Source: an uncultured Gammaproteobacteria bacterium (GTDB lineage Bacteria; Patescibacteriota; Microgenomatia; UBA8517). Taken from it: a DNA stretch of 64,000 bases. Under the pieces are notes generated by a model. The model was given only the letters and a program-made list of their open reading frames with translations, did no database searches and had not been told where the DNA came from. Positions 47,289 through 64,000 of the stretch are shown here, one piece after another; positions within the stretch are counted from its first letter, which is position 1; every line of letters begins with the position of its first letter. The position numbers and the translations under genes are program-made. The stretch covers positions 3,197-67,196 of the forward strand of contig CAZPLB010000004.1 of the NCBI GenBank assembly GCA_964587425.1, in the 5' to 3' direction.

Positions 47289-47362
47289 TGCCAGATCATC
47301 TAATGGTAGGATAGAGGACTCTGAATCCTCTCATCTAGGTTCGAATCCTAGTCTGGCAGCCA
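47289..47362 (+). tRNA. tRNA-Gln (anticodon CUG) with encoded CCA
   Basis: The cloverleaf is acceptor TGCCAGA/TCTGGCA, a 3-bp D-stem ATC/GAT with a GG loop, anticodon stem GAGGA/TCCTC with loop CUCUGAA (CTG), T-arm CTAGG-TTCGAAT-CCTAG, discriminator G and CCA. Confidence 0.88.
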
Positions 47363-47487
47363 ATCGATACACCCAGGTGACCGTAATGCCTGGAAAAGCC
47401 CATGAACACCTCCAAAATCGCTAGATTTTCCTTCAAACATTCGTACGGCACGCTCAACATTCGGAAAACATTCTCAACATTGAAGGA

Positions 47488-49406: not shown

Positions 49407-50133
49407 GTTTATGATGAGAGATAAATTTTATACCTCGTTCTTCTTTAATAAATTCTTGTGATGGTCCGTAAAAGACAAGTTCTCTATTGATAGCTACAAT
49501 TTCGGTAACCTCTTTAGTGATTACATCGACATCGTGAGAAATTAAAACAAGAGTGATTTCTAAATCTTGATTTAATTTTTTAAGGATTTTATAAAATTGT
49601 TCCTGAGAATCCTGATCCACCCCACTTGTCGGTTCATCCAAAAAAATAATTTCTGGCTCTTGAGCGAGGGCTCTTGCAATAAAAACTTTCTGTTGTTGTC
49701 CGCCAGATAAATCTCCAATTAATCTGTCTTTAAACTCAGACATACCAACCTTTTCAATTACATCAGAAATTAAAGTTTTATCTTCTTTTGTAAGTCCTTT
49801 GAAGAGCCCTGTTGCAGAATATCTTCCCATTGAAACAACGTCCCAGACGGTTGCCGGAAACTTTTGGTCAAAGTCAGTCGCCTTTTGCCCAACATAAGCA
49901 ATTCGCTTACTAAAAACATTAATTGATCCCTCTTGCGGTTTAATAAGACCAAGGATCAATTTGATAAGCGTACTTTTACCCCCTCCGTTTGGCCCAACAA
50001 CTCCTAAATAGTCACCTTTATGTATGTTTAGATTTATATTCTTAAGTACTGGTGTTTCCGAAAAATAGGAGTAAGAAAGATCTTTAATCTCAATTATATT
50101 TTTTGTATGGTCCGTATTTACTGCCATAATCAT
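49399..50133 (-). CDS. znuC: zinc ABC transporter ATP-binding protein
   Basis: Walker A (GPNGGGKST), the signature LSGGQQQK and Walker B (IFLDEP) are present. Confidence 0.85.
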   Translation of the reverse strand: MIMAVNTDHTKNIIEIKDLSYSYFSETPVLKNINLNIHKGDYLGVVGPNGGGKSTLIKLILGLIKPQEGSINVFSKRIAYVGQKATDFDQKFPATVWDVVSMGRYSATGLFKGLTKEDKTLISDVIEKVGMSEFKDRLIGDLSGGQQQKVFIARALAQEPEIIFLDEPTSGVDQDSQEQFYKILKKLNQDLEITLVLISHDVDVITKEVTEIVAINRELVFYGPSQEFIKEERGIKFISHHKHD

Positions 50134-51050
50134 TTACACTCTAGTGCAATTCGTAAATTTTGAAGATTATTATTCATGACAGTCAAATAGTTTTTGCCAG
50201 AGGTAATTTCTTCAGGTGTTAATCCTTCAATAGGGTTTAATTCTATTGCTTGTGCTCCAGTTTCTTTGGCTAAAGTTTGAGCAAGTTTAGGGCTTACAAG
50301 GCTTTCAAAGAAAATGTATTTAATTCCATTTTTCTTTACGTAGTCCGCCAATTCACCAAGTCGTTTTAAAGAAGGTTCCTCGTCAGGCGAAAGACCAGTT
50401 ATGGTTAATTGATTAAACCCGTAGTCTTTTGCTAAGTATCCAAAAGCTGCATGAGAAGTGACAATATCTTTTCTTCCGCAGACATCCAGACCTTTCTTGT
50501 AGCTCCCATCTAGACCATCAAGATCTTTGAGTAGTTTATCAGTATTTTTAGAATAGTAATCTTTATTTGAAGGATCTATCTGAATCAACTCTTTAAGAAT
50601 TGCATTGACTTGAACTTTTGCTCGTGTTGGGCTTAACCAGATATGAGGATCGGTTGCGGTTTGACCTTCCTCATCTGTAACCTTTTGTGTAAACAGTCCT
50701 GTGCCTGCAATTAATATTTTTATATCTTTATCTTTCAAATCTGTTTGAATTTTCGCCCCCCAAGGTTCTACTTCTCCATTCAGAATCAACAGTTTACTTG
50801 AATTAATTAACACCAAATCTCCAGAGGTTAGTTCATAATCATGAGGTTCTGCCCCAGCAGGAGTGATGTTTGTTACATGAACTTTATCTTTACCGATTTC
50901 TGATGCAAAAAAGTAGTGGGGATAAAACGATGCTGTTATTTGTAACCTCTCACTTGTTGGAGTCTTTGTGTTATTTTTAATCCCAAAATACAGTCCTATC
51001 CCAATAAGTAACGATATAAATAGTAAAGTTGATGTTTTTTTCATTGACAA
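50130..51050 (-). CDS. znuA: metal (zinc) ABC transporter substrate-binding protein, TroA/ZnuA family
   Basis: The lipoprotein-like N-terminus, the metal-ligand segment AGAEPHDYE and DPHIWLSP are present. Confidence 0.8.
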   Translation of the reverse strand: MSMKKTSTLLFISLLIGIGLYFGIKNNTKTPTSERLQITASFYPHYFFASEIGKDKVHVTNITPAGAEPHDYELTSGDLVLINSSKLLILNGEVEPWGAKIQTDLKDKDIKILIAGTGLFTQKVTDEEGQTATDPHIWLSPTRAKVQVNAILKELIQIDPSNKDYYSKNTDKLLKDLDGLDGSYKKGLDVCGRKDIVTSHAAFGYLAKDYGFNQLTITGLSPDEEPSLKRLGELADYVKKNGIKYIFFESLVSPKLAQTLAKETGAQAIELNPIEGLTPEEITSGKNYLTVMNNNLQNLRIALECK

Positions 51051-51442
51051 TTATGACAATATCCAAAAAATTCTAGGTTATGTTTCAATATTTTGAATTT
51101 ATTGACACTCGAAATAAATTTCTCCTCATTTAAAAGAGCTTCTTTTAAAACCACATCTTCAACCTCATGGCAATTGACACAAACCAAGTGATGATGATGC
51201 CCCAAACTTGAAAGTTCATATCTTTTATTTCTGTCACCGAAATTAACTTCATTAAGATACCCTGCATTTAAAAGAGTATCTATTTCTCGATATATAGTTG
51301 TTTTGTTTGCTTTTATTTTTGAAAGAAATTCAGTAGGGGTTAAAGGTTTGGTAGAGGACTGCAACATTCCAATAATTTGTTTTCGAACTGAAGTTATCTT
51401 TAACCCAGATTTTTTTAGATCATCAACTATTTTATCTTGCAT
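51041..51442 (-). CDS. zur: Fur-family zinc uptake regulator
   Basis: An N-terminal wHTH (...SVRKQIIGML...) and C-terminal HHHLVCVNC...CHNC metal sites are present. The start was set at the internal ATG (MQDKIVDDLKKSG...). The ORF-track TTG start at 51478 is an alternative. Confidence 0.8.
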   Translation of the reverse strand: MQDKIVDDLKKSGLKITSVRKQIIGMLQSSTKPLTPTEFLSKIKANKTTIYREIDTLLNAGYLNEVNFGDRNKRYELSSLGHHHHLVCVNCHEVEDVVLKEALLNEEKFISSVNKFKILKHNLEFFGYCHNCQ

Positions 51443-51494
51443 GACGCTATCATAACGCAACTTAGTTGCAGTTGTCAATACGACGATCTAATAA
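51443..51494 (-). promoter_or_regulatory. zur-znu promoter with an embedded 6-1-6 palindrome GCAACT-t-AGTTGC (candidate Zur box)
   Basis: On the minus strand the sequence reads TTGACA-actGCAACTaAGTTGCg-TTATGAT-agcgtc-ATG. The palindrome sits in the -35/-10 spacer, and the ATG is ~7 nt after the -10, implying a leaderless transcript. Confidence 0.45.
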
Positions 51495-52646
51495 TCAATC
51501 ATTCTTAGCATCAACTATGAAGCTTGCTCTATTAAATAATTCATCGAATGTTAAGATATCGATTCCATGTAATGATTTTCGAAATCTTTGAAAAGTTTCT
51601 CTTTTACTTCTGGTATCGAGTTGAGATAACTGGCCAATTACCACAACTCCTTTAGGCTGTATTGTAAATACATTATCTTTTTCTAATTTATCAATGTTCT
51701 CTGGAAATCTTGATCCTTGTTTATCCCAAGTATCAACATTAACTTGTATTTGAGTTAGGGCATCCGTTAGTTGTTTTGAAAGACTCCACGCCCCTGATCT
51801 AATCTCCTTTTCACCTTGGAGTAGTTGAGTATCTGGAGTTTTTATTTCGACTAAAACTGTAAAACTTAAATCTCCAACAGTGGATGTTAGATAATCTCCT
51901 TTTTGTCCTCCTCTTCCGTCAACTTTTGTGCCTCCATAATTTGGTTGATTTTGTTCTTGTCGCAAAATTTGATAATTTAGTCCGTAACCAAATATCCATT
52001 TATTTGACTCAAAAAAATCTTGCCACCATTTTTCATCTGTTGACTGTGTTTTAATTGATGTGTCAAACAATGTAAGCTTTTCTTTTCTCTTTAAGATTTG
52101 ATTTATGTCGTCTTCTGATAGTGAAATACCATTTATTAAAGATAGTTGTTTGATAATACTCAGCACACTCTCAATACCACGCCCTCTAATGGCTTTGACT
52201 ATCTCGCTCTCGGCTTGGGTTACCAAAGAAAAACTTTCTCTAGGAATTTCAATTTGTGTTAGGGAGGTTAAAAATGAGATAAGTTTCCAAAAGTTATCGT
52301 GGCATTCTTCTAGGTTGACACTCGCTTTAATCATGCGGTCCTTCGCCTCGGTCATGTTTACCGATTCTTCAATAATTTTCCCGGTCACGTTTCTAACTGA
52401 TACAGAGATTCGAGGCGTAAATTTTTCATCTTTTTTTATTAATACAACCTTACAAATGTAATCAACTTTGTCTTTCTTATTTAAAATAAACTGTTTAATC
52501 AATTTATTATCTTTTTTGCTGAAAAAATAATGGAAATTGTTTTCGGGAGTGGGATGGATTTCTAAATCGTCAAATGAGTCTTTGCCAACTATAAAGCTGT
52601 CATTGTTTACCTGAATCCATTTGTCATAATCAACAGTCTTTAACAT
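51495..52646 (-). CDS. Shedu-like (DUF4263) PD-(D/E)xK nuclease, putative anti-phage defence protein
   Basis: The C-terminal half has EKWWQDFFESNKWIFGYGLNY...GDYLTSTVGDLSFTVLVEIKTPDT...IDILTFDELF. This gives a D-x13-E.K catalytic arrangement and the DUF4263-like entry motif. It is adjacent to a recombinase and phage genes. Confidence 0.45.
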   Translation of the reverse strand: MLKTVDYDKWIQVNNDSFIVGKDSFDDLEIHPTPENNFHYFFSKKDNKLIKQFILNKKDKVDYICKVVLIKKDEKFTPRISVSVRNVTGKIIEESVNMTEAKDRMIKASVNLEECHDNFWKLISFLTSLTQIEIPRESFSLVTQAESEIVKAIRGRGIESVLSIIKQLSLINGISLSEDDINQILKRKEKLTLFDTSIKTQSTDEKWWQDFFESNKWIFGYGLNYQILRQEQNQPNYGGTKVDGRGGQKGDYLTSTVGDLSFTVLVEIKTPDTQLLQGEKEIRSGAWSLSKQLTDALTQIQVNVDTWDKQGSRFPENIDKLEKDNVFTIQPKGVVVIGQLSQLDTRSKRETFQRFRKSLHGIDILTFDELFNRASFIVDAKND

Positions 52647-52703
52647 ATATTTTACTGCTTGTATTATCCTCCAAGCCTAAATCAAAAACAATCTGCTTGA
52701 AGT

Positions 52704-53990
52704 TTAATGAGCTCTGAGAGAAGTAATATTTCGGTTCTTGATAAATAGTGGGAAATTAAAAATGTTAAATAGCTCACGTTTTTCCTCTGTGTTTTTGTTT
52801 GTTAAAACATATCTCGCATAATCTCTTATGTCCCACAGTTTCGAATTTGGATTAACATCTTGCTGAAGAAAGATTGCTTCTCTCATATTCTTAAACTCCT
52901 CGAGTCCTTTTTGAATTTTATCTGTCAGTACTAACTCATGAGAATGAGCTATATACATAAAGTTTATGAGTTTTAGTAAACTTCTTTCTAATTCTTCTTC
53001 CGACACATAAGGTTCTCTGCAATCGTAATCAATTTGGCGGGAACAGTGATAATAAACATGGTATCTCGGCTCTTTTCTTAATCTTTCTCTGTATCTGTCT
53101 TCTCCAACAATGCTTGCCTTGCAATTAGCACATTTCAGAAGTCCTTTATAAGTGAATGTTTTTGATCCCCATTTAGCTTTTGTTGGTACTATTAATTTTT
53201 CTTGAACTTTATCAAACATTTCTTTTGTGATTAACGGAGGATATGAACCCTTATACCAATTGCCACTTTTTATCGGATATTCAAATTCACCATAATAAAA
53301 TGGATTTTTTAGCATTAAATAAACCTGACTCAAGGTAATTAGTTGCCCAGATTTATTTGTAAGGCTCACTTCATCTAGCCATTTTTTAATCTTTCTTCCG
53401 CTAGATTTTTCCTTAATAAATTTTGTGAACATTTGCGTAATAATAGGTCCTCTTTCCGAATCAAGAATCACGTCTTTTATCCCATTAAAAGATCTATTCA
53501 TATATCCAATTGGAGTAGGACCAGGTCTAAATCCCATTTCGCATTTTGCTCTAATTCCTCGTTTTACATTTATACCTTTTTGGTCATTTTCTAGTTTTGC
53601 TTGGGAGCAGAGAATCATAAGTAAAAACTTCTCGTTGGGGTTATTGGAAAACATTTGTGAAAATGTCCTTATTTGCAAGAGTTTCCCCTGATCCATCAGA
53701 TCCACTAAATTCCCCAAATCTCCAGCGTTACGTGATAACCTGTCAGGTGCCCAAGTTAAGATCCCATTAAACCTTTTTTCTCTAATATCACTAAGGAGTT
53801 TCATAAACATTGGCCTCTGTCCTGAATCTTTTGCAGAATGGCTCTCCTGAAGTACCTCAACAACATTTAAGCCCTCTTTTGTTGCGAGAGCTCCCATTTC
53901 CTTTATCTGACTATCAATGCTCATGGTTTGGCGTTCATCGCTCTCTGAAGATTTCCTAGCATATAAACAGTAATTAATTTGAGGCTCCAT
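52704..53990 (-). CDS. large serine recombinase (resolvase catalytic domain + recombinase domain + zinc ribbon)
   Basis: The catalytic-serine region YCLYARKSSESDERQTMSIDSQ, a recombinase domain and a C4 ribbon (CANCKAS...YHCSRQ) are present. The start was set at the internal ATG (MEPQINYCLY...). The ORF track extends it to 54077. Confidence 0.8.
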   Translation of the reverse strand: MEPQINYCLYARKSSESDERQTMSIDSQIKEMGALATKEGLNVVEVLQESHSAKDSGQRPMFMKLLSDIREKRFNGILTWAPDRLSRNAGDLGNLVDLMDQGKLLQIRTFSQMFSNNPNEKFLLMILCSQAKLENDQKGINVKRGIRAKCEMGFRPGPTPIGYMNRSFNGIKDVILDSERGPIITQMFTKFIKEKSSGRKIKKWLDEVSLTNKSGQLITLSQVYLMLKNPFYYGEFEYPIKSGNWYKGSYPPLITKEMFDKVQEKLIVPTKAKWGSKTFTYKGLLKCANCKASIVGEDRYRERLRKEPRYHVYYHCSRQIDYDCREPYVSEEELERSLLKLINFMYIAHSHELVLTDKIQKGLEEFKNMREAIFLQQDVNPNSKLWDIRDYARYVLTNKNTEEKRELFNIFNFPLFIKNRNITSLRAH

Positions 53991-54033
53991 ACAGGTACAA
54001 GGTACCGCAACGGTTTGTGAAGTCCAGACGTAA

Positions 54034-54064
54034 AAACAGGAAGGTGTTTTATTCCTTCCTGTTT
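54034..54064 (-). terminator. hairpin terminator AAACAGGAAGG-n9-CCTTCCTGTTT downstream of the 54080..54508 gene
   Basis: An 11-bp perfect stem with a T-rich flank on the minus-strand transcript. It lies between the OB-fold gene and the recombinase. Confidence 0.55.
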
Positions 54065-54079
54065 CTAACTTTAGCAACT

Positions 54080-54508
54080 TTATTTAACAATCTCACAGTC
54101 GCTGACGTCAATTACTCCGATTGTTTGTTTACCTACAATTCCTTGTACAGTAACTGTTTGACCGTTCTTTATCGTCAATAGCTGTTGTTTGTCTTTAATC
54201 CTACAGCTTATCTGCACTAAGGAAAAATCCTTTGATCCAATATTGGCAAAGGAAATACCTGAGTCGGTAATATTTGTAACCTTTGCAGAAAACTCAACAA
54301 GTTTACCTTTCCATGTTGCCTCAGCCGCCACTTGATTGGCGTCAAAATCATCTGCTAGTTTATCCACGCTTATTTTTTCAGCTACAGGAGCCGGAGTAGG
54401 TGAGGATGATGAAGAAGTCTTGCTTCCTCCCTTACCGCTTCCACCAACTATTCCAATTACTATTAGCCCTAAAATGATAAACCCAACAATTTTTAAAAAT
54501 TTTTTCAA
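54080..54508 (-). CDS. membrane-anchored small protein with a Gly/Ser-rich linker and an OB-fold-like C-terminal domain
   Basis: An N-terminal TM helix, GGSGKGGSKTSSSSSPTPAP linker, then a ~90-aa beta-rich domain. This is a common phage/island accessory architecture. Confidence 0.4.
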   Translation of the reverse strand: MKKFLKIVGFIILGLIVIGIVGGSGKGGSKTSSSSSPTPAPVAEKISVDKLADDFDANQVAAEATWKGKLVEFSAKVTNITDSGISFANIGSKDFSLVQISCRIKDKQQLLTIKNGQTVTVQGIVGKQTIGVIDVSDCEIVK

Positions 54509-54608
54509 TTTACTTCACCCCCTTTCCCTTCATTAACTGAATGATGCGCGAAATATGGCATAAAGTCAAGCGTATTCTGAGGCTATTTGCTCGCTTCTAG
54601 CTAGTAGA

Positions 54609-54629
54609 TTGATAACTCTTGGCTATCAA
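54609..54629 (+). promoter_or_regulatory. inverted repeat TTGATA-N9-TATCAA overlapping the XRE gene promoter (candidate operator)
   Basis: The palindrome lies immediately upstream of the ATG of the HTH gene. TAATAT -10-like hexamer 4 nt before the ATG. Confidence 0.45.
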
Positions 54630-54639
54630 TAATATCAGT

Positions 54640-54855
54640 ATGATAAGAAGCACTAAACAAACCAAAGAGAGGCTGGGAAGCAAAATTCAGAAACTTAGAA
54701 AATCTTTTGACTTATCGCAAGAAGCGTTGGCATCAAAATTGGGTATCAGTAGAACTCATATGGGTCATATTGAGCAAGGAAGAAAATCGCCTTCTCTTAA
54801 ACTTCTTACCAAAATTTCAAAAGAACTTAAAAAGGACATTTCGGATCTCTTCTAA
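54640..54855 (+). CDS. XRE-family (Cro/CI-type) HTH transcriptional regulator
   Basis: LRKSFDLSQEALASKLGISRTHMGHIEQGRKSPSLKLL is a classic HTH_3 sequence. The start was set at ATG 54640. The ORF track uses TTG 54619. Confidence 0.7.
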   Translation: MIRSTKQTKERLGSKIQKLRKSFDLSQEALASKLGISRTHMGHIEQGRKSPSLKLLTKISKELKKDISDLF

Positions 54856-56375
54856 AACTTTGTATCCATTGTTATTGGTCCATGGTTGAATTCACGATCA
54901 TTGTATAAACCACCCGTTACAGGTGATCCACCAAAGATAAACATTTCAAACTCCGGTCTGCTGTCTTCCTCGATAATTTTTAAGAGCAGTAATGAAAAAG
55001 CATCTGCCAAATCATCATGCCTTTCGATGCCAAATCCAGTTAGTTGATTAATAAGTGTTTCTGCACCGTGCCTTGGGAACCAAACCTTACCCTGTTTAAT
55101 TATGTGGGTAACAATTGCAAGTCTTGTTCTTTTGTCTTGGCCTTTTGGACTCACACCTTCGACAGGGATATATTTAGAAGAAAGATGATCAATAAATGAT
55201 TGTTGGTAACCGACATTTTCAACAAATAACTTTGTCTGTTCGCCATGAACCACAGTTTTTGATAACGAAATTGCTGTCTCAACAGTTGTTGGAAAATCCA
55301 TCCTTTTATTTATTGGGTTAGGTAAAATATACACCGCCAAATCTTCACCTCGACCAAACATATATGCAGTGACCATTGCAGTACAGTCTGCTGATTCTCT
55401 TAAGGAAATTGCCAAATCAATTCCAATTCCAGCAAATTCGAAATTATCCGAATCTGGAGACGGAAGGTCGTCGTAATATTGTATCCATTCAGATTTAACT
55501 AATCTATCTTCATCAGAAATAATTTTAAGTAAATATTCTCTATAAAAGGCTGACTCTTGGGAGAAATTCTTTTTCAATTTTTCAACATCTTCAATTGTTG
55601 GGTATTTGGCAGGCCATAAAATATCATTTTTATCGTCAATCAGAGGGTAAGCCAAAAACTTACCATTCAACTTTTGGTCTTCTATCAATTTTCTAAACCT
55701 CATAATTAAACTGTCTTCGTGAAGTAAATTGCCGACAACCAAAATTTTTGTATTTTTATCTCCGACTGGAATAATTTCGGCATTAAACCAAGTGAAAGTT
55801 TTATCTCTACCTTCCTTTGTCTTAACACTATTAATGTCTTCTATGTCATCGCAAATAATTAAATCCGGCCTATACTGCCCATGTCTAACTCCGCGTATGC
55901 TTTGTTCGGTTGAAACGGCTGCAATTCGGGTACCAAATTTTGGAATAACTATTGAATTCGACCCCCATTCATCATTTGGCGATTCGAATGGGCCAATATC
56001 AGCTTTGAGTAAATCATTATTTTCAAGCTCCTGTTTAATATTTTCCAAATGCAATTTGGCTTGAGCTTGAGTTTGACAAACAATAAGAATAAATTTTTTC
56101 TGCTGGATTCCTATTATTGACCAGATCACATATGAAAGTGTTACCAATGTTGATTTTGCTGATCCACGAAAAGCGACAAGGACTGCAAACGCTATATCCT
56201 CTTCAGTAAGTTCAAATATTTCATGATGAAAAGGAGCAAACTCGCAGGAAATATAATGCGAAAGATAAAGTGTAAAAAACCAATAATGATTTTTTCTAGC
56301 CAAAGCCCGTCTTATTTTTCTATCCTTTCTGATTTTTTCTAATTCTTCTGGGCCTAGTTGGGGATAATAAATCAT
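54852..56375 (-). CDS. phage terminase large subunit-like protein (ATPase + RNaseH-like nuclease)
   Basis: Walker A (FRGSAKST) and Walker B (LIICDD) are present, with a C-terminal nuclease-like region. It is adjacent to a small-terminase-like HTH gene. Confidence 0.65.
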   Translation of the reverse strand: MIYYPQLGPEELEKIRKDRKIRRALARKNHYWFFTLYLSHYISCEFAPFHHEIFELTEEDIAFAVLVAFRGSAKSTLVTLSYVIWSIIGIQQKKFILIVCQTQAQAKLHLENIKQELENNDLLKADIGPFESPNDEWGSNSIVIPKFGTRIAAVSTEQSIRGVRHGQYRPDLIICDDIEDINSVKTKEGRDKTFTWFNAEIIPVGDKNTKILVVGNLLHEDSLIMRFRKLIEDQKLNGKFLAYPLIDDKNDILWPAKYPTIEDVEKLKKNFSQESAFYREYLLKIISDEDRLVKSEWIQYYDDLPSPDSDNFEFAGIGIDLAISLRESADCTAMVTAYMFGRGEDLAVYILPNPINKRMDFPTTVETAISLSKTVVHGEQTKLFVENVGYQQSFIDHLSSKYIPVEGVSPKGQDKRTRLAIVTHIIKQGKVWFPRHGAETLINQLTGFGIERHDDLADAFSLLLLKIIEEDSRPEFEMFIFGGSPVTGGLYNDREFNHGPITMDTKF

Positions 56376-56803
56376 TTTTGTTCCTCCATTTCTTCTTTTT
56401 GCATTGCTGGTATCAGTGAAGCTAATTGCAGAGCTTTTGTCACCAATGCTTCTTGTTCCGGAGTTAAGGTTTCATTTTGATTTTTCAGATTGGCTGTAAC
56501 CTCAACTTTAGTAGCATATGCAGAATGATGATGTTTTAACCAAAAAATAATTGCAGTCATATTTTGATCTTTGATTGCAGAAAGGAGCTGGCTCTCTGCC
56601 ATGTCATTAACCAAAGCTGCACCTTCATTCAGGGCAATATCCGTTTCCTTAGAAAACTTTTCATCATTTATTCTCCACCTGTAATATGTAGCTCTTGCGA
56701 TTCCAATTTTTCTGCAAACAACCTCCACAACTGGTGTCTCTTTTAATTTATCCAACAATTCTTTCTTTAATGCAGTTTGCCTTTTAGTAATTAAGTTTTT
56801 CAT
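56372..56803 (-). CDS. phage terminase small subunit-like HTH protein
   Basis: ...VVCRKIGIARATYYRWRINDEKF is a terminase-small/transposase-type HTH. The start was set at the ATG (MKNLITK...) overlapping the stop of the upstream methyltransferase gene. Confidence 0.5.
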   Translation of the reverse strand: MKNLITKRQTALKKELLDKLKETPVVEVVCRKIGIARATYYRWRINDEKFSKETDIALNEGAALVNDMAESQLLSAIKDQNMTAIIFWLKHHHSAYATKVEVTANLKNQNETLTPEQEALVTKALQLASLIPAMQKEEMEEQK

Positions 56804-58125
56804 TGTATTTTTATAGCTTTTTGCCCCGTCAAGTTCTCCCATCTCTTCTTGATAACTTCCGCGTAAACTGGTGACTTTTCCATTAAGTAGCATCGCCTTT
56901 TCATTTTCGTTGCAGCAATTAAAGTGGATCCACTTCCTCCGAAAGGTTCAATTATTAAATCATTTCTCTTAGTCAAAACTTTTATATAGGGGATAAGTAT
57001 TTCTATTGGTTTGGTTCCAAAAATTATTCCCTGACCTGAAGACTTTTCATCAGAAGCCTTATATTCAATAAAATCAGTCGGGCAATACTTATTACCTTTC
57101 TTATAACTTTCCCAAGTCGGTTTACCAGAAGTTGCAAAAAGTGCGGTTTCATATTCTTCTTGGAGAAGTGGTTCGTTCTCGTGATTAACATTTAGAGTTA
57201 CTTCACCTGATGTCCCAACCATTGCAAAATCATATTTATTAAAAAACTTATATTTTGCCGCAAAGCCCTGCATCCTGTTTGGTAAGTGCCAAATAACTGT
57301 GTTTCTGTATTTCCAATGCTTCTCCAGTTCGTTCCAAATAGTTCTTAGATTTTTGGGATTTTCATAAACGATAATTGAAAAATCTGGTTTTTGAATCTTG
57401 GAAACACTGGCCATCCATTTTTCTGTGAAATCTGGTGGTAAAACATCTGTTTCTAAATATCTGCGGTCTCTCTTTGCTCCAAAACCTGTGATAGCTCCTT
57501 TATGTTTCTTCTTTCCTCGAAGGTAATCTAAAATGTAAGGCGGGTCTGTAAAACACATGTCCGCTTTTTCTCCACTCATGAGTTTTAACACATCTTCTTC
57601 AATCGTTGAATCTCCACACATTAATCGACTATTTCCTAATAGATAGATGTCTCCTTTTTGAGTTTCAACGTTTGTGATGTTCATCCTCTGAAGTTCCTTT
57701 TGAAGATCAAAAGTTTCTGGGTTTACATCAATATCAAAAATATTATCTATCTCTTCAGAAGAAAAGCCTGCGCTTGAAAGGAAAATCTCATCCAAATCTG
57801 CCAATAAATCCATATCCCAATCTCCTACGTTTTTGTTCGATCGAATATTGTATTCCGCAAATTCATCTTTTGTAAGTTTCCTGTTTGGAATTCTTATGTC
57901 TATTTCTTCTTCGCCTCTGCCTAAGAGAATCATTACCTTCACCCTCTGATGCCCGGCCACAATCTTATTGTCAGTATCGATAGCTGGGATTTCGGCTAAA
58001 TTAAATTTAATCAAGCTGTCCTTTAACTTGTTAGCCTGGTCCTCTGACAATTTGCGTGGATTTAATTCATACGGAATCAAATCTTTTACCTTACGTTTTT
58101 CTGTATGCCAAGATAAATTAGTCAT
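56800..58125 (-). CDS. ParB-like nuclease domain fused to a beta-class N6-adenine/N4-cytosine DNA methyltransferase (orphan, phage-type)
   Basis: The N-terminus has a ParB/Srx fold (YELNPRKLSEDQANKLKDSLIKFNLAEIPAIDTDNKIVAGHQRV). Motif IV (DPPY, in CFTDPPYILDY) precedes motif I (FGGSGSTLIAA), the beta-class order. Confidence 0.75.
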   Translation of the reverse strand: MTNLSWHTEKRKVKDLIPYELNPRKLSEDQANKLKDSLIKFNLAEIPAIDTDNKIVAGHQRVKVMILLGRGEEEIDIRIPNRKLTKDEFAEYNIRSNKNVGDWDMDLLADLDEIFLSSAGFSSEEIDNIFDIDVNPETFDLQKELQRMNITNVETQKGDIYLLGNSRLMCGDSTIEEDVLKLMSGEKADMCFTDPPYILDYLRGKKKHKGAITGFGAKRDRRYLETDVLPPDFTEKWMASVSKIQKPDFSIIVYENPKNLRTIWNELEKHWKYRNTVIWHLPNRMQGFAAKYKFFNKYDFAMVGTSGEVTLNVNHENEPLLQEEYETALFATSGKPTWESYKKGNKYCPTDFIEYKASDEKSSGQGIIFGTKPIEILIPYIKVLTKRNDLIIEPFGGSGSTLIAATKMKRRCYLMEKSPVYAEVIKKRWENLTGQKAIKIQ

Positions 58126-58175
58126 AAGGGGATTGTCTACTATTGCTCAAGATTTGTATAAGGCGCCAATTCAGC

Positions 58176-58925
58176 TCAATTGATGCCAATTTTTTGTTTA
58201 TGACGTTTTATGAAGCTAGCAACGTCAACGTATGTATAATTTTTGTCATATTTTTCAGATAAGATGTCAGATATTTCATCATTCGATTTGTTTGAAACAC
58301 TGAGCTCATATGCTTCTTTATCTCTATCAAAGTTTTTTATTGGTTGAAATTTCTTTTTGGTATAAGACGCAAGTCTTTTTTGGTGAAACTTGATTCTTGA
58401 CCATGCCTTCTTTATATCTTCAAGTCTAGTAGAATCATCTATCCCAATAGAAAGTTGTACTAGATCTGTGTCTAAGTCAAAATCCTCTCGAACTGTTACG
58501 TTTCCCACTATCCACATCGAGTCAAGATTGTTAAATAAAATATACCTTTGAATACTATGATGCCAACCTAAAGGCAACCTATGTTTTTCCAAGATTTTCT
58601 TTATACAGATATCCAATGCATTTATGGGAGCATCCTTGTTAAACTGACGTCGAAGATTGAAAGCTTCTTTAAACTTCTTTCCTTTTTCCAGCTCCAATTC
58701 TTCGATCTTTATCCTTGATATATTTTTTTCAAAATATTCGTCGTTGCTTAAATAAAAATTATGATGCCATTTTTCGCTTTGATCGTTATCTTTAATCCCT
58801 TCTTGAGGAATACTAAATCTTTCCCTGATTTCTGCCACATTTTTTTGAAAATCAGGGTTGGCAAGAGTCAGCCTTGCTCTTTGTTTTATCCTATTTGTTG
58901 GTTTCTTAACTTGTTTAGTTTTCAT
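58176..58925 (-). CDS. hypothetical protein
   Basis: A 249-aa Lys-rich ORF with no recognised motif. It is divergent from the downstream operon. Confidence 0.4.
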   Translation of the reverse strand: MKTKQVKKPTNRIKQRARLTLANPDFQKNVAEIRERFSIPQEGIKDNDQSEKWHHNFYLSNDEYFEKNISRIKIEELELEKGKKFKEAFNLRRQFNKDAPINALDICIKKILEKHRLPLGWHHSIQRYILFNNLDSMWIVGNVTVREDFDLDTDLVQLSIGIDDSTRLEDIKKAWSRIKFHQKRLASYTKKKFQPIKNFDRDKEAYELSVSNKSNDEISDILSEKYDKNYTYVDVASFIKRHKQKIGIN

Positions 58926-58990
58926 TTTCTTAAACTGATTATACCTACTTTCTTGTTATAGGCGAGCCTGAGTTATATACTTCTGATGAA

Positions 58991-60199
58991 ATGAAATACA
59001 GAGTCTATGCCTTAATTCATGGTCAAACCCTTATGGAAGGGAAATTATTTGAGTGTGAAATTAAGAAGATGGAATTTGATGAACAAGCAAAAAGAAAGTT
59101 TGCCCCAATTCAAAGCGTTTTCTCCGAAGGAGAAGATTATGATTATTACAAAACTTATGTCACCTCTCTTCGATATATTGACCCTATAAAAATAAGGTCT
59201 GAACATGTAATTATTTGTGATATCGAGGAAGACAAACCTGGAGATGCACTAGGTGGAGCAATCAAAACAATCGAAAGAATAACCAGATTTTTGTCTTTAA
59301 CTTCTTTGGAAGATGTAAAGAGAAAATATGGAAGGAATAGAGGTAGTTTTGAACCATACGTTTATCAGGTAAATAAAATTTATTCTCTAAATAAAAATGG
59401 TAAAGAATCAGATGTTGGCTATAAGCTTGAAAGTGGACATATATATTTGCCAAATAGACCAGAACAGGAAAAATGGAGGGATCCCGGCACAAGTCAATTT
59501 TTAGATGAAATTTACAATTTCCACGACGAAACATTTGAGAGATCTCTCAAATATCTCTATCGATCTTCTATAGGACGTTTTGTTTTAGATAGTCAGGAGA
59601 AGATAGCATTGGATCATTTCAAATCAATTGAAATTATAATCAACTCATTATCAAAAGAACATGAGTTTAAGGATAGGTTGGCGGATGTCGCAGTAAAGAT
59701 AGGAATTACACCAAGAGAGCAAAAGAGAATTGAAGATTTTTGGGATGATAGGTCGAAGTATGGTGACATTGCTCATCCATCAAAATTTGACCAGGTTGAA
59801 AGATATCCAAACCAGTTTCCAGTACCCAGCAATACTAGATATTCCGGGAGTGGTTTTGATTCAATTGCTCCAAATATTCTCTTTAAATATTATCAGTACA
59901 TTAAAGGAGTTTTTATAATCGACATTGACGAACCATCTGGTGCGAATGGGTCAAACTCTAAAGAGGGTCGATTTGATAAAGTTTATGAAATCTCACAATA
60001 TGGCCCAAGTCACCACAACCATTTAGTTTTCTACACTTCAGAGAAAAACAAGCACAAATTAGTTAATAATTTAAAGAAGGCATTTTCCAAAAAATACAAA
60101 ATATCAGAGACTTCAATAACGGAAATAAAAATTCTCCCAAAGAAGAGTGGAAACTATAGCGAAAGGAGGGTTAGATTAAGAGTATGTACGACAATATAA
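58991..60199 (+). CDS. hypothetical protein (gene A of an uncharacterised operon)
   Basis: A 402-aa ORF of non-biased composition with no Walker motifs. It contains an RSKYGDIAH segment (R-x7-H, outside canonical HEPN spacing). Its stop overlaps the gene B start by 16 bp. Confidence 0.45.
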   Translation: MKYRVYALIHGQTLMEGKLFECEIKKMEFDEQAKRKFAPIQSVFSEGEDYDYYKTYVTSLRYIDPIKIRSEHVIICDIEEDKPGDALGGAIKTIERITRFLSLTSLEDVKRKYGRNRGSFEPYVYQVNKIYSLNKNGKESDVGYKLESGHIYLPNRPEQEKWRDPGTSQFLDEIYNFHDETFERSLKYLYRSSIGRFVLDSQEKIALDHFKSIEIIINSLSKEHEFKDRLADVAVKIGITPREQKRIEDFWDDRSKYGDIAHPSKFDQVERYPNQFPVPSNTRYSGSGFDSIAPNILFKYYQYIKGVFIIDIDEPSGANGSNSKEGRFDKVYEISQYGPSHHNHLVFYTSEKNKHKLVNNLKKAFSKKYKISETSITEIKILPKKSGNYSERRVRLRVCTTI

Positions 60200-61737
60200 A
60201 AATTGCTTTTGAAAGTTTAATTAAACATCCTCACTTCCAAATTCTAGTAAGAGAATATCGCCACAGGTTCGGTATTCCGGAATCTGGTTTTAGTGATTCA
60301 TCTTCTGAGGCATATAAAAATTGGGTAAATGAAGGTTTAAGAAAGTCAGATTATTTAAAAGATCAATTTCTATTTATAGCCAAAAGGTGTAAAAACCTTA
60401 TTCCAAACAGAGATCCAATCCCTAGCACCTTACTTGCATATTATTTTCTATTCGGACAAATTCCAAACGAATCATCTAGCCAAAATAGTTTTATCTTTTC
60501 TGTTAATCCAAGCGGAATTCTTGGCAGTTTCGATATAACTTTTACGACTCCATTAGTTTTCAGTTTGGATGAATTTTTGCAGGAGGTTGAAAAACATAAT
60601 CTGGAAATTAAACAAACAAGTGAAAACACAAGATTAGCTCTTTTTAATCTATCTAGTTCAAAAAAACCAAGGACATCGGAGTTTGACTCAACTCGCGACT
60701 TATTAGCAACAACCCCTGGCAATGGTTCAGATATTGTAGATCGAGTTCATAGAGATATGGCCTATTTAGTTGAGTTTGGTCGAATTGCATTAGAAGAACA
60801 TCTCCAAAATATGAAAGATGAAGATTTTGTTATTAATAGTTACGATGACAAAAATAAGCCCATGTTTCAACCAATACAACATATGGGATCCATTCTTTTG
60901 AATCGCGGACTATTTCCTATCGCTGAGGAATACTGGAAACAAATAGATGATGAGATTCAGATGTTTAATCGGCAAACTGGAAAAAGAGTTAATAGAGGCA
61001 TTCCATTAGCAAATACGGGTGTATCCCAAATTGCACAAGGGAAAGTTATAGAAGGTCTATTTAATATTTATAGAGGATATAACGACGATAAAGAATGTCT
61101 TCAGCATTTACCCGGAATTGTAATTGATCCTGAAAGGGACATGTCGAGAAGCGTTCTCTTTACTCAATTTGAAGAGAAACAAACTGCTGAACTTTTTAAT
61201 TTGATTGTTTCCAAATACAGCAATGTTTTTAATCCAGCACTGTCAAAAGAAGACCTTGCAGACTTTATTAAAAGTTTGGGTTCAGATAAAAAATTGCTTT
61301 TCTACATGATCCTTTATCGTTTATCTTTTGCTCTGAATTTAAACAATCAATTATCAACCGTCATTTCTAGAAGCGAGATTCTTAGGTCATTGGCGGAACT
61401 AGCTTTATGGTTTGAAGATGAGTTAAAAAGAAAAGATCCGGTTTTGATTGGTCGAACTTTGGTTCCGATATTGGATCAAAAAGTTGGTCAGTTAAATCCA
61501 ACCAGTGATCAATACACGAGGGCAGCAGACTTGGATGAGCTATCTAATAAAATATCCAGCGCACTACAAGCAACTGCTAATTTGGAAATTACAAACGCAC
61601 GAATTATTGGATGTTTAAGAAATTTTGCTGGCCACAATCTCGAAGTCCAAGACCACACATTTTTCCAAACTTGCGATGAAATTTTTGCACGGATGCTTTC
61701 TTTTATAATTTATTCAAGAGGTCAAAATTGGATTTAA
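60184..61737 (+). CDS. HEPN-motif protein (gene B), putative RNase
   Basis: The C-terminus of this 517-aa protein has ITNARIIGCLRNFAGHNLEV, i.e. RNFAGH, a canonical HEPN Rx4-6H (Abi2-like RNxxxH) motif. It overlaps genes A and C. Confidence 0.45.
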   Translation: MYDNIKIAFESLIKHPHFQILVREYRHRFGIPESGFSDSSSEAYKNWVNEGLRKSDYLKDQFLFIAKRCKNLIPNRDPIPSTLLAYYFLFGQIPNESSSQNSFIFSVNPSGILGSFDITFTTPLVFSLDEFLQEVEKHNLEIKQTSENTRLALFNLSSSKKPRTSEFDSTRDLLATTPGNGSDIVDRVHRDMAYLVEFGRIALEEHLQNMKDEDFVINSYDDKNKPMFQPIQHMGSILLNRGLFPIAEEYWKQIDDEIQMFNRQTGKRVNRGIPLANTGVSQIAQGKVIEGLFNIYRGYNDDKECLQHLPGIVIDPERDMSRSVLFTQFEEKQTAELFNLIVSKYSNVFNPALSKEDLADFIKSLGSDKKLLFYMILYRLSFALNLNNQLSTVISRSEILRSLAELALWFEDELKRKDPVLIGRTLVPILDQKVGQLNPTSDQYTRAADLDELSNKISSALQATANLEITNARIIGCLRNFAGHNLEVQDHTFFQTCDEIFARMLSFIIYSRGQNWI

Positions 61738-62393
61738 AACTTATGGACAAACTATTTTGTAATATTTGCAAAGAAGAAAAAGGTGTCACTAAATCCGGTA
61801 AAGAAGGGGTTGCTGATTTCTATATTCTTTCTTGTGGTCATCGGTTTCTAGCAGGATCCCTTTTTGAAAAAATTAAAATGAATGAACTGTTTAATTTTAG
61901 AGGAAAGGGCAAGACAAATATTAAATACACTAAGGGTGATCCTCAGCACAGTGCAAACTATGCTAAGAAATTCATTGAGTACGGAGATATTGATTATGAA
62001 GCTGCGACTGTTCTATTTAATATCCAAAACAGGGACTACGATTTCATGAACCAAGCAGCTTTTTTGTCGGCACAATCAATTGAAAAATATCTTAAAGCAT
62101 TTCTTTTTTGGAATTCAAAAACGCATTATCCAGGTTCAGGTGGTAAAGAAGTTTTAGAAAAATTCAAAGCGCTGAGCCATAACTTAGAAAATATTCTTGG
62201 CGAATGTGCAAAAGACAACAAAGATTTCTTAAAGTTTAAGAGTCAAATTAAGGAAGTTAACAAATATTCTCTACTTAAATATCCCGACGTTGAGGATGAA
62301 ATGGTTTATTCTGATTTGGGATTAACGATTAGTAGCGATATTTTGAAACATGTAAAATTGGTGGGAGACTTTATAAAAAAGTTATTACTGTAA
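61728..62393 (+). CDS. zinc-ribbon protein (gene C)
   Basis: The N-terminus has CNICKEE...x17...SCGHRF. A helical C-terminal domain follows with ...AAFLSAQSIEKYLKAF...KALSHNLENIL. Confidence 0.4.
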   Translation: MDLKLMDKLFCNICKEEKGVTKSGKEGVADFYILSCGHRFLAGSLFEKIKMNELFNFRGKGKTNIKYTKGDPQHSANYAKKFIEYGDIDYEAATVLFNIQNRDYDFMNQAAFLSAQSIEKYLKAFLFWNSKTHYPGSGGKEVLEKFKALSHNLENILGECAKDNKDFLKFKSQIKEVNKYSLLKYPDVEDEMVYSDLGLTISSDILKHVKLVGDFIKKLLL

Positions 62394-62395
62394 AA

Positions 62396-62980
62396 ATGTT
62401 GTCTGATAAATTAATCAAAGAATATAAAGATATTTTTGAAGTAAAATACAAACGAAAAATATCTGACGAGGAAGCGCGAGAAGGCGCGCAAAATTTAACT
62501 AATTTATTTGAGATCTTCTACCAGCAATTCCAAACAGAACAGCGAAGAAAAGCAAAATTAAAAGATAACCCAGATGGTTTTCTTTTAGATGACCACGAAG
62601 GCGCTTATAACTGCCGGGTTTGCAACTATCCTGTTTCTGGAAAAGAAGCTTGGTGGGATTTAAACGGTGTTAAGTGCCTAGATTGTCAGAGAAATATCAA
62701 AGAGGGAGTTATTCCCGGAGAGATTTGTCAAAACGATGACCTTTGTATAAAAGAATGGCAATTACAATCTGATTACAGTCTTCACCCCTCTACAAGAAGA
62801 AAACTTATAAGAGAAGGTGTCCTTAAAGCACGAGATTTAAAGAGAGAGGATGGGTCAACCTACTATTCTGTTTATCTTGTGAGTGAAAACAAAGAGTTTT
62901 TCAAGAAATATCCTCAAAAACCAAAAATGAAGTTTGAATGGAAAACTGTTGATAGTAAAGGTAATGAAGTAAGGCCATAA
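62396..62980 (+). CDS. zinc-ribbon protein (gene D)
   Basis: A central CRVCNYP...x16...CLDCQRN motif sits in a 194-aa ORF. Confidence 0.4.
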   Translation: MLSDKLIKEYKDIFEVKYKRKISDEEAREGAQNLTNLFEIFYQQFQTEQRRKAKLKDNPDGFLLDDHEGAYNCRVCNYPVSGKEAWWDLNGVKCLDCQRNIKEGVIPGEICQNDDLCIKEWQLQSDYSLHPSTRRKLIREGVLKARDLKREDGSTYYSVYLVSENKEFFKKYPQKPKMKFEWKTVDSKGNEVRP

Positions 62981-63099
62981 GTATATCAAACTACATCATT
63001 ACTCCAATATCCTTTTTATACTGTCTCAAATGTCTCATTTAGCCTCGATTGTGATACACTCTTAGGTGAGTTATAAGGTCTAAACGGGTTCAGACCGGT

Positions 63100-63783
63100 A
63101 TGCTCAGCATGGATAATCTTCAACAGAAACAATGGACTATTCCGAAAGCTAAGAAAAATCTTCATGCTTGTAGATATCATTTGGTAAATATGTGGCGTTC
63201 TGTACACCCAGAAGAACTTCAGTACAATTTCGCAGCATTTTTGAGTGAAGCGTTGAGGGTAACTTGGGTATTACAAAATGAATATTGTAGAGATAAGAAA
63301 TTTATAAAGTGGTGGGGTAATATTGAAAAAGATAGTCGTACTGGAGGTAATAAGTCTAAACTTGAAAAAGGAACAAAAAGATACGAGATGAGGAATGACC
63401 AGCTGTGTAGTTTTTTTTACGATCTGAGAACTAAAATTTTGAAAGAAGGAGTATCGGGATTTGCAGTTCAATCAACAAAGATTCTGAAATTAGATACAAG
63501 GTTTGACATTAAGGATAAGCCAGAAGGTGCAAGTAGTTTTATATTTTCTGGAAATGGTGCTTACTGGTTGATTTACCCTAGTTCTTCTAAAGTAGATATG
63601 ATTCCAGCAAAATTCCAAACTACTGCCAATATTCAATATTCAATTACAAGTACTGATCTTCCAAATTCGCACCTTAATAAGTTAATTAAAAACAATAATT
63701 TACTGAAGAGTTGTGAACTTTATTGTCAGTATTTGAGTAGTTTACTTGAAGAGTGGACAGAGATATTAAATAAACATGATTGA
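63100..63783 (+). CDS. hypothetical protein (gene E)
   Basis: A 227-aa ORF. Its stop overlaps the next ATG (ATGATTGA). Confidence 0.4.
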   Translation: MLSMDNLQQKQWTIPKAKKNLHACRYHLVNMWRSVHPEELQYNFAAFLSEALRVTWVLQNEYCRDKKFIKWWGNIEKDSRTGGNKSKLEKGTKRYEMRNDQLCSFFYDLRTKILKEGVSGFAVQSTKILKLDTRFDIKDKPEGASSFIFSGNGAYWLIYPSSSKVDMIPAKFQTTANIQYSITSTDLPNSHLNKLIKNNNLLKSCELYCQYLSSLLEEWTEILNKHD

Positions 63784-64000
63784 AACACACCCCTTCGGTA
63801 ATTATGTTCCTAAGAGTGTCAAGTACTTAATGTTAGGAAGTTTTGTAACTAAGCCCTCCAATCCTTATGAATGGTTTTATGCAAATGGTCGAAATCAGTT
63901 TTGGCCGATTATGCAAGAAGTTTATGGTTTAGAGCTCAAAACTAAAGGGCAACAACAAAAACTTTTTATAGATTTGGAAATGGCGCTTACAGATATAATT
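63776..64000 (+). CDS. uracil-DNA glycosylase superfamily protein (MUG/hypoxanthine-DNA glycosylase-like), 5' fragment truncated by the window end
   Basis: A manual translation gives MIETHPFGNYVPKSVKYLMLGSFVTKPSNPYEWFYANGRNQFWPIMQEVYGL.... The (L)GSFV...NP...NRFW arrangement matches UDG-family motifs A/B as in MUG (GINPG...HPANRFW). Confidence 0.4.
   Translation, partial: MIETHPFGNYVPKSVKYLMLGSFVTKPSNPYEWFYANGRNQFWPIMQEVYGLELKTKGQQQKLFIDLEMALTDII

Follow-up and report, generated by a model that had tools for sequence, protein, structure and literature searches.

The window analyzed here, a stretch of 64,000 nucleotides of contig CAZPLB010000004.1, contains at positions 47361–63108 an integrative island of 15.75 kb that, as judged from its sequence, resides in the genome of a member of the Patescibacteria or candidate phyla radiation (CPR). 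The island is very probably a tRNA-integrating element that uses a large serine recombinase (LSR) and belongs to a family recognized by its terminase genes; that its ends lie at exactly these two positions is probable. Comparison of the encoded proteins points to a large family of such capsid-less islands in Patescibacteria. Their core is an operon encoding a DNA methyltransferase (MTase), which is usually fused to a ParB domain, a small terminase subunit (TerS), and a large terminase subunit (TerL), with the LSR downstream on the same strand. A preliminary description of this DNA had proposed a mobile phage-derived island that lacks virion genes and carries defense cargo, and this proposal is supported. 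The genes it listed (Shedu, LSR, XRE, TerL, TerS-like, ParB-MTase, and an unknown operon) are all present by domain, PHROG, or PADLOC matches. The portal, capsid, and tail genes whose absence it had noted were likewise not found by Pfam, PHROGs, and NCBIfam, and together with PADLOC these searches returned no lysis or replication family among the island proteins either.

The four core genes of the window are the following.

56800–58125, minus strand: ParB_N–N6/N4 DNA methyltransferase fusion (N6_N4_Mtase, 3e-20; phrog_498, 1.5e-72)
56372–56803, minus strand: TerS-like small helix-turn-helix (HTH) protein (PHROG small-terminase families, 4e-8 to 1e-5, the best at 3.9e-8 and 2.2e-7; HTH_Tnp_1_2)
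54852–56375, minus strand: TerL (phrog_38, 1.5e-78; Terminase_6C)
52704–53990, minus strand, with the mechanical open reading frame (ORF) extending to 54077: LSR, the integrase (Resolvase, Recombinase, and Zn_ribbon_recom)

TerL is predicted to consist of the two parts that characterize a large terminase, an N-terminal Walker A/B ATPase and a C-terminal RNase H-like nuclease. The Walker A/B residues and the acidic residues of the nuclease are invariant across 20 homologues, in which the motifs GS[GA]KST, ICDD(V/I)ED, the acidic residue of GIDLA, and HDDLADA are kept. An inactivated TerL was considered for the window on account of its Walker A sequence GSAKST and was rejected, since the Ala variant is as common as Gly family-wide and hence is a family trait. 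The TerL profile matches T7 gp19 and another solved TerL weakly, and the NCBIfam model termin_lrg_T7 is also matched; a search of the PDB by sequence gave no significant match. Among 50,697 phage records, no close relative of TerL was found, the best protein identity being 28%, and no DNA similar to that of the island occurs among the INPHARED phages. The TerS-like gene overlaps its neighbors on both sides by 4 nt, which suggests translational coupling. The ParB-like part of the MTase matches phrog_620 (6e-21) over residues 7–139, and PF02195 ParB_N is recognized in its orthologues. The PADLOC matches of the MTase are to generic models for Type II and orphan MTases, and no canonical restriction endonuclease is adjacent. 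The LSR is predicted to contain a Resolvase domain with the nucleophilic Ser, a Recombinase domain, and a zinc ribbon (PF00239, 7e-21; PF07508, 4e-13; PF13408, 2e-7; phrog_95 integrase, 7.7e-58). Its true start is likely M30 at 53990, which gives the catalytic-serine motif YARKSSE.

The distribution of this core was determined by scanning one genome per GTDB species, and the counts of loci refer to the 80 best GTDB loci retrieved; loci and contigs used for comparison are designated by L and a number. TerL relatives of 49–83% identity occur in at least 565 GTDB species. The named records among them include Microgenomates, Saccharimonadia, Parcubacteria, Peribacteria, Dojkabacteria, WWE3, Berkelbacteria, and others. 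A metagenome protein collection holds 3060 homologues, whose few source-named top matches are Roizmanbacteria or Microgenomates (CPR). A TerS-like gene lies upstream of TerL in 79 of the 80 loci, and an MTase of the same family in 76. Of the 68 loci that extend far enough to judge, 57 have an LSR farther downstream in the same orientation, and the gap between TerL and LSR is shorter than 150 bp in 24 loci and otherwise filled by 0.15–9.3 kb of variable genes. The core architecture is identical across CPR classes, and complete CPR genomes with the module include the records behind L007, L037, and L040. A copy identical to the one in the window, L001, occurs in SRR9179563. Clustering of the neighboring ORFs within ±10 kb of the 80 loci yielded no further conserved family and no structural family. 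The core travels as a unit under strong purifying selection: dN/dS is 0.014–0.14 for MTase, TerS, TerL, and LSR in several close pairs, and TerL, with 0.014–0.025 in three close pairs and a mean identity of 52% across the sampled loci, is the most constrained core gene.

With respect to gene order and the homology of MTase, TerS, and TerL, the core resembles the front of the late operon of Caudoviricetes (ParB/MTase–TerS–TerL–portal). However, the phages checked have portal, protease/scaffold, and major capsid protein (MCP) genes after TerL, whereas the island has cargo and the integrase, and the identity of TerL to any phage record is at most 38%. In the nearest phage contigs (L117, L120, and L121; TerL identity of 35–38%), a portal gene comes just after TerL in all three, and an MCP is recognizable in two. 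IMG/VR contigs with a TerL of at least 44% identity all keep TerS and the MTase, and usually the LSR; those at 38% or below all lack these genes.

An intact Caudoviricetes prophage requires portal, MCP, tail, and lysis genes, none of which was found by Pfam, PHROGs, or NCBIfam in 47361–63783 or is conserved within ±10 kb in the 80 loci. The preliminary description had pointed to virion genes just downstream as a sign of an intact prophage; none was found up to 63783, and the element ends inside the window. It had also considered a decayed prophage repurposed as a defense island; in such a defense or cargo remnant, the terminase genes would be nonfunctional leftovers. Structural, lysis, and replication genes are indeed absent, and one truly decayed copy exists at L180 (5896–8519), beside a tRNA-Gln, with the LSR split by a frameshift, TerL reduced to residues ~97–453, and neither TerS nor MTase. 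Nevertheless, such a remnant is a very improbable account of the island, as the four-gene core recurs in at least 565 species with the low dN/dS values given above, which argues against a decaying prophage. TerL retains all its catalytic motifs and the LSR its catalytic Ser, the same architecture recurs across CPR classes, and independent random deletions would not recreate one TerL-to-integrase junction hundreds of times.

Two variants of the core were observed within the family. In about half of the loci, an MTase of ~430 aa, 26–36% identical to the ParB-MTase of the window, is followed by a second MTase of ~255 aa from the same family and then by TerS (L021, 7508–9549; L023, 7534–9560; L015, 7563–9582). 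Members from Peribacteria contain two tandem TerL paralogues after TerS, whose DNA is ~64–67% identical (L033, 8378–11416; L044, 8358–11551; also L059, L071, and L072).

The ends of the island are marked by two conserved noncoding segments, the P and P' arms, which lie at the following positions relative to the flanking genes.

47289–47362, plus strand: tRNA-Gln(CTG), the integration target (ARAGORN; Rfam tRNA, 60.2 bits)
47361–47479, minus strand: P arm, a terminal noncoding segment against the tRNA 3' end (homology to the LSR-to-tRNA spacers of relatives)
62997–63108, minus strand: P' arm, the opposite end of the element (joined to the P arm in L085, 190–420, and in L086/L087)
63109–63783, plus strand: u227, an orphan flank gene (224 aa) outside the island at the attL-type junction (gene call)

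The 3' end of the tRNA-Gln carries the sequence CAGC at 47357–47360, which constitutes the crossover core of the attR-type junction. The adjoining P arm is homologous to the spacer between LSR and tRNA in L082, L048, L026, L103, and L180 (nhmmer, E = 7e-25). In L048, L082, and L026, the same tRNA type is located 95–241 bp after the LSR gene, and L103 is likewise arranged. The LSR of the window is 84% identical to that of L048, which itself lies 241 bp from a tRNA-Gln(CTG); in the window, the distance to the tRNA is 5.3 kb. Beside the tRNA-Gln of the module-free relatives L177, L178, L179, and L181, the P arm is absent; hence, it belongs to the element and not to the host. Since the P arm abuts the tRNA-Gln, the yibEF–znuBCA–zur operon and the Shedu gene are inside the island, between the LSR and the element end. 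The left limit of 51495 and the insertion next to zur-znuACB, both given in the preliminary description, are therefore replaced by an end at ~47361, where the P arm, and not the zinc operon, marks the site of insertion.

At the opposite end, the start of the P' arm resembles a tRNA 3' end (GCTGAGCATACCGGTCTGAACC) and includes the CAGC core at 63105–63108. P and P' are directly joined in L085 and L086/L087 and are 15.7 kb apart in the window. The junction in L085 reads ...GCTTGCTG|AGCAGTAGGGTCTCGGACC. In reverse complement, the tRNA-side junction of the window reads ...GATTGGCTG|CCAGACTAGG (tRNA), and the far-side junction ...TTATCCATGCTG|AGCATACCGGTCTGAACC. GCTG is the exact point at which homology to L085/L086 ends, and each junction has a copy of CAGC. 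The right boundary, earlier thought to lie beyond the window, is thus found within it at the P' end. Beyond the 4-bp core, no direct repeat of the tRNA 3' end is present inside the window. The junction P|P' expected for a circle or concatemer is ...GATTGGCTG|AGCATACCGG..., and the empty attB site is expected to read tRNA-Gln ...TCTGGCAGC|ATGGATAATC... The comparison of att repeats and empty sites that had been suggested has thus yielded the repeated CAGC and no empty site. The latter is not recoverable because the flank gene on the attL side is an orphan: the sole homologue of u227 among 5.8e9 proteins is 40% identical and located on a 1.8-kb contig. An exact-sequence look-up of GluRS for the same purpose returned no record.

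Composition and flanks agree with these limits in that the GC content of the island (0.349) is under that of every 15.7-kb segment of the 47-kb flank (minimum of 0.370), and the left flank, RecJ–AspRS–DacA–GluRS–two ORFs, shows conserved synteny among relatives. An explanation of the P and P' segments as RNA was rejected because they match no Rfam family and show no conserved fold or covariation; they are read as DNA sites, namely att arms or a promoter. Within P', a block of ~50 nt is near-invariant in four loci (TTTTTATACTGTCTCAAATGTCTCATTTAGCCTCGxGTGTGATACAC) and contains a direct TGTCTCA repeat; it is located at 62997–63080 in the window, at 340–420 in L085, and at 5780–5855 in L086. In the latter two, it lies between a MerR/HTH_17 gene and variable genes. 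The block is probably a promoter or operator and possibly an outward promoter into the flank.

Members of the family lie at tRNA 3' ends, and the clades of the LSR follow the tRNA type. In 16 of 39 loci, the 2.6 kb that follow the LSR contain an opposite-strand tRNA whose 3' end faces the LSR, compared with a background expectation of 0.045 tRNA per 2.6 kb; a same-strand tRNA is present in only two. tRNA-Gln and tRNA-Ser predominate among the targets, Arg, Glu, and Asp tRNAs are used in some loci, and the nearest-neighbor LSR shares the type of target in 13 of 23 cases. Three loci carry exact repeats of the tRNA 3' end upstream of the core, of 19 nt in L061, 15 nt in L068, and 12 nt in L032, so that the repeat-bounded units measure 17.0, 15.8, and 14.7 kb, respectively. 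L004 contains two P'-type ends 14.6 kb apart, which suggests a tandem array. The close relatives L082/83, L085, and L086/87, whose TerL is 79–83% identical, are embedded in wholly different flanks, unlike the shared syntenic position in all relatives that the preliminary description had named as a sign of immobility. One metagenome-assembled genome contains two diverged copies (L049/L050). L181 carries an identical tRNA-Gln with no module nearby. At 12340–12640 of L181, the tRNA-Gln 3' end is duplicated ~110 bp further on (…TTCGAGTCCTAGCCCGGCAAC + ATCAGTTGCTGGGGCTAGACG…, twice), perhaps a scar or a miniature insertion in the same hotspot.

Of the known systems, phage satellites and tycheposons appear closest in logic, and the staphylococcal cassette chromosome (SCC) shares the design of an LSR-driven cargo island. 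The island has in common with satellites (de Sousa et al. 2023, PMC10085698; PMC10803314) the small size of ~15 kb, the site-specific insertion, phage-type regulators, terS, defense cargo, and the lack of a full virion set. It differs by the MTase as a core gene, the targeting of a tRNA 3' end by an LSR, the Patescibacteria host, and the lack of a known helper phage. An integrase with att-type ends, a length of 15.75 kb, and a terS-like gene recall phage-inducible chromosomal islands (PICIs; ~10–15 kb). In contrast, PICIs usually encode a tyrosine-type integrase and not a serine recombinase, and they contain a pri-rep replication module, whereas primase, helicase, and Rep are missing from the island and from four relatives; nor does the island show a PICI-type regulatory layout. 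The satellite or PICI-like nature suggested earlier thus stands as far as a satellite-like lifestyle, the best available mechanism, is concerned and falls for PICIs in the strict sense because of the missing primase/replicase and regulatory layout and the LSR integrase. Capsid-forming PICIs (cfPICIs) with TerL also carry capsid, portal, and connector, whereas the island has TerS and TerL only. PICI-like elements (PLEs) also use a large serine recombinase as integrase, and nothing else is shared: they possess a RepA replicon and ICP1-specific interference in Vibrio cholerae, whereas the island has no replicon and belongs to another phylum. PICMIs (phage-inducible chromosomal minimalist islands) have prim, unlike the island, which has no replication gene. 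Very reduced and without packaging genes, PICMIs can still enter helper capsids of full size as concatemers (PMC10803314).

Tycheposons of Prochlorococcus (Hackl et al., bioRxiv 10.1101/2020.12.28.424599) resemble the island family by their insertion at specific tRNA 3' ends and by integrase clades that track the tRNA target. The same source describes tandem arrays split by partial tRNA copies, degenerate remnants beside the tRNA, and cargo for nutrient acquisition and defense in a streamlined genome (bioRxiv 10.1101/2020.12.28.424599). However, tycheposons use a tyrosine recombinase and a primase/helicase replication module, whereas the island has the serine type and no such module was found; terS and MCP occur only in a PICI-like subset of them, and none is defined by TerL and MTase. 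Elements of the SCC type (SCCmec) are cargo islands driven by an LSR (Ccr) that are inserted, between short direct repeats, at the 3' end of a conserved gene, occur in composite or tandem arrays, and lack genes for self-transfer or replication. They differ by their target, rlmH as opposed to tRNA-Gln here, and by the lack of a packaging module and MTase; the island has a single recombinase. The best NCBIfam matches of the window LSR are CcrB/CcrC/CcrA (1e-26 to 6e-15), all far below the family cut-offs (for CcrB, 93.6 bits as against 900); the sequence relationship to SCC holds at the superfamily level only. Hence, the element lacks what defines a PICI, cfPICI, PLE, or tycheposon, and its design with TerL but without portal is unusual.

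Excision by the LSR followed by packaging through the island's own terminase into the capsids of a helper phage is proposed, an account that we hold with evenly balanced confidence. The element would thereby act as a satellite-like hitcher, equipped with a packaging enzyme of its own but with neither capsid nor replicon. An XRE or LexA/CI-type repressor would hold it quiescent. Upon induction or infection by a helper phage, the LSR would excise the island as a circle. TerS would bind a site on the island, and the island TerL would cut the DNA and pump it, probably as concatemers, into procapsids of a co-resident CPR phage. By prior methylation, the MTase may protect the island DNA from restriction in the next cell, where the LSR would reinsert it at the cognate tRNA of the new host. 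A broader claim is made only tentatively, and we lean slightly against it. It states that these elements are an unnamed, phylum-wide group of tRNA-integrating "terminase islands," that is, satellites without capsid or replicon that combine both terminase subunits with an anti-restriction methylase, take over nothing but the empty procapsids of CPR phages, and serve as a main vehicle for defense, metal, and nutrient genes in these very small genomes, or else that MTase–TerS–TerL has been repurposed as a restriction-like or addiction system.

Several points weigh against the hitcher account and its premises. Neither a helper phage nor a circular junction, an empty attB, or an encapsidated copy was seen, and no module-bearing contig has the terminal overlaps expected of circular or concatemeric forms. 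No characterized satellite is known to bring TerL without a portal, and the island TerL must dock on a foreign portal. A replication module is absent, unlike in PICIs, PLEs, P4, and PICMIs. The contiguity of P and P' in L085/L086 is interpreted as the junction of a tandem array, a reading that is unproven. The empty tRNA-Gln–u227 junction was not recovered via homologues of u227, and the ATG of u227 directly after the core is odd for a pristine attB, which suggests that older accreted material may lie beyond the far junction. With regard to the host range, about one quarter of the 80 genome records stand under non-CPR names (generic third-party annotation labels or short contigs).

A restriction-like or addiction function would likewise be consistent with the tight and universal linkage of an MTase to an ATP-driven nuclease. 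In such a module, the MTase would mark DNA, and TerS/TerL would attack unmethylated invaders or act as a post-segregational killer; the LSR alone would handle integration and excision, and transfer would use other routes, e.g., natural transformation. The MTase is as universal in the core as TerL (76 of 80 loci), a second one is present in about half of the loci, and MTase, TerS, and TerL are translationally coupled in one operon. TerL is conserved far above usual phage terminases (mean identity of 52%, dN/dS of ~0.015), portal, capsid, and replicon are all absent, and the islands otherwise gather defense genes. However, phage late operons ordinarily begin with MTase–TerS–TerL, and the nearest relatives of TerL are phage terminases followed by a portal. 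No defense system is known to rely on a TerL, and PADLOC, whose scan on this point covered the MTase only and matched generic MTase models, returned nothing for TerL or TerS. Furthermore, LexA/CI-type repressors beside the operon in 22 loci suggest inducible and not constitutive expression. On balance, a terminase-derived restriction or addiction module is considered unlikely.

A functional TerL implies a capsid somewhere, and the island might thus be the packaging and integration arm of a split or complete virus-like system, with head and tail genes located elsewhere, as in gene transfer agents, or unrecognizable among the unknown proteins. The four proteins u249, u402, u517, and u194 have no detectable homology to known proteins and could in principle supply such components. 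They are not conserved with the core, though: u402 and u517 occur only in the window among the 80 loci and elsewhere in unrelated contexts, and beyond the core no family is conserved within ±10 kb. The predicted structure of u517 is all-alpha and shows no capsid or portal fold. Multiple copies, variable location, and tRNA targeting are furthermore traits of a mobile element and not of a domesticated single locus. Such a split system is therefore regarded as improbable.

The remaining genes of the island occupy three cargo slots, from P' to the core (slot 1), from TerL to the LSR (slot 2), and from the LSR to the P arm (slot 3), with one accessory gene directly upstream of the MTase.

47488–51478, minus strand: zinc operon of slot 3 (Pfam), composed of the next five genes
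47488–48612, minus strand: YibE/F-like membrane protein (YibE_F, 3e-67)
48609–49406, minus strand: znuB (ABC-3, 2e-66)
49399–50133, minus strand: znuC (ABC_tran, 1e-31)
50130–51050, minus strand: znuA (ZnuA, 1e-77)
51041–51478, minus strand: zur/Fur-family regulator (FUR, 4e-21)
51495–52646, minus strand: Shedu sduA anti-phage nuclease gene, slot 3 (PADLOC PDLC00391 SduA, E = 6.6e-134; Pfam SduA_C, 1e-30)
54080–54508, minus strand: OB-fold tRNA_anti-like/Sie-like protein, slot 2 (PF12869, 1e-12; phrog_8545 "superinfection exclusion Sie-like," 3.7e-14)
54640–54855, plus strand: XRE-family HTH regulator of 71 aa, slot 2 (HTH_3, 1.6e-13)
58176–58925, minus strand: u249 (249 aa), accessory gene directly upstream of the MTase (no database match)
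58991–62980, plus strand: operon u402–u517–HEPN–u194 of slot 1 (ORFs, Pfam), composed of the next four genes
58991–60199, plus strand: u402 (part of the u402 + u517 cassette)
60184–61737, plus strand: u517 (C-terminal Rx4H HEPN-like motif)
61728–62393, plus strand: Zn-ribbon–HEPN protein (HEPN PF05168, 2.6e-6)
62396–62980, plus strand: u194, with a Zn ribbon (homologues sharing the slot)

In the island and in the family as a whole, the cargo spans defense, metal homeostasis, and transporters. The zinc operon has a GC content of 0.348 compared with 0.388 in the flank. The adjacent Shedu gene encodes the single SduA protein with the DUF4263 nuclease domain that characterizes this system, and the PADLOC match covers residues 10–379. 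In slot 2, a tRNA_anti-like or DUF4352 protein is found at the position of the OB-fold protein in ~29 related loci, and such proteins recur directly after TerL in the family. The XRE gene is convergent with TerL and overlaps its stop codon by 4 nt (54852–54855). The same convergent arrangement is present in at least 16 related loci (e.g., L003, 11500–11503; L006, L008, and L009), and its conservation suggests that convergent transcription may regulate TerL. The palindromic operator assigned to this regulator in the preliminary description dissolves into an inverted repeat at 54609–54629 (TTGATA-N9-TATCAA), whose arms of only 6 + 6 nt are indistinguishable from chance.

Homologues of u249 occupy the same position in nine other loci, and the protein has no match in Pfam, PHROGs, NCBIfam, PADLOC, or the PDB. 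For u517, 65 homologues of 52–80% identity were found, the few source-named ones being from Patescibacteria or WWE3, and the C-terminal RNFAGH sequence (Rx4H, HEPN-like) is invariant among them. Its AlphaFold2 model (mean pLDDT confidence of 80) matches no PDB fold at E < 0.1. For u402, 46 clusters were found among 1.84e9 proteins. The overlapping genes u402 (402/409 aa) and u517 (517 aa) occur together at 58991–61737 in the window, at 2121–4867 in L251, and at 8787–11554 in L253. Since the pair is found in unrelated contexts, e.g., beside genes resembling a type IV secretion system in L253, it appears to be an independent cassette and is a candidate for a new defense or toxin system. u194 has no significant match in the PDB by sequence; a homologue of 57% identity resides in the same slot of L085, and homologues lie on the same side of the core in eight of the 80 GTDB loci and in several IMG/VR loci.

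The cargo of relatives fills the slots with other genes. Slot 1 of L085 contains GmrSD, an EcoRI-type MTase, FtsK, and the u194 homologue, and slot 2 of L086 contains ArsR and a P-type ATPase. A direct repeat of 71 bp (86% identity; 11534–11604 and 15085–15155) brackets this ArsR–P-type ATPase cargo and hints at how cargo enters the slot between TerL and the LSR. A LexA/S24-type repressor gene is located upstream of the core in 22 loci. Other recurrent neighbors are heavy-metal ATPases, DsbD–HMA–cupredoxin proteins, Eco57I-type restriction-modification (R-M) enzymes, and SNF2–PLD proteins. The 57 cargo ORFs of the four bounded relatives (L009, L032, L061, and L068) include transporters, redox enzymes, Hsp70, and SNase, and among them are neither primase, helicase, and Rep nor capsid and portal. 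A diversity-generating retroelement (DGR; RVT_1 + bAvd) is present in one of the four, and a ThsB-type TIR protein is another of these cargo ORFs.

Patescibacteria comprise a large share of bacterial diversity, have genomes of ~1 Mb, and rarely contain CRISPR. To our knowledge, almost no mobile elements have been characterized in them, and a full-text search of the literature gave no description of the present module in CPR bacteria. With hundreds of species carrying it, such a family could rank among the major routes by which genes move horizontally within the phylum. Its fixed four-gene core with three slots carries defense genes (Shedu, TIR, type IIG R-M, DGR, and HEPN proteins), metal cargo (zur-znuACB and Cu/heavy-metal ATPases), and transporters. 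If the proposed mechanism holds, the concept of a satellite would extend to elements that keep TerL without capsid or replicon. In addition, the family supplies many natural LSRs with likely tRNA targets and partly mapped att arms. Since IMG/VR contigs with a TerL of at least 44% identity resemble islands and not viruses, the provirus counts for CPR in IMG/VR are probably inflated by loci of this family that are listed there as short "viral" contigs. A TerL of the family is encoded on at least 524 IMG/VR "viral" contigs, of which the loci L089–L123 were examined.

Outside the island, the minus strand of the window contains at 28914–33590 an ORF of 1558 aa in which only C-terminal CarboxypepD_reg-like repeats are recognizable. 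It probably encodes a giant surface protein unrelated to the island.

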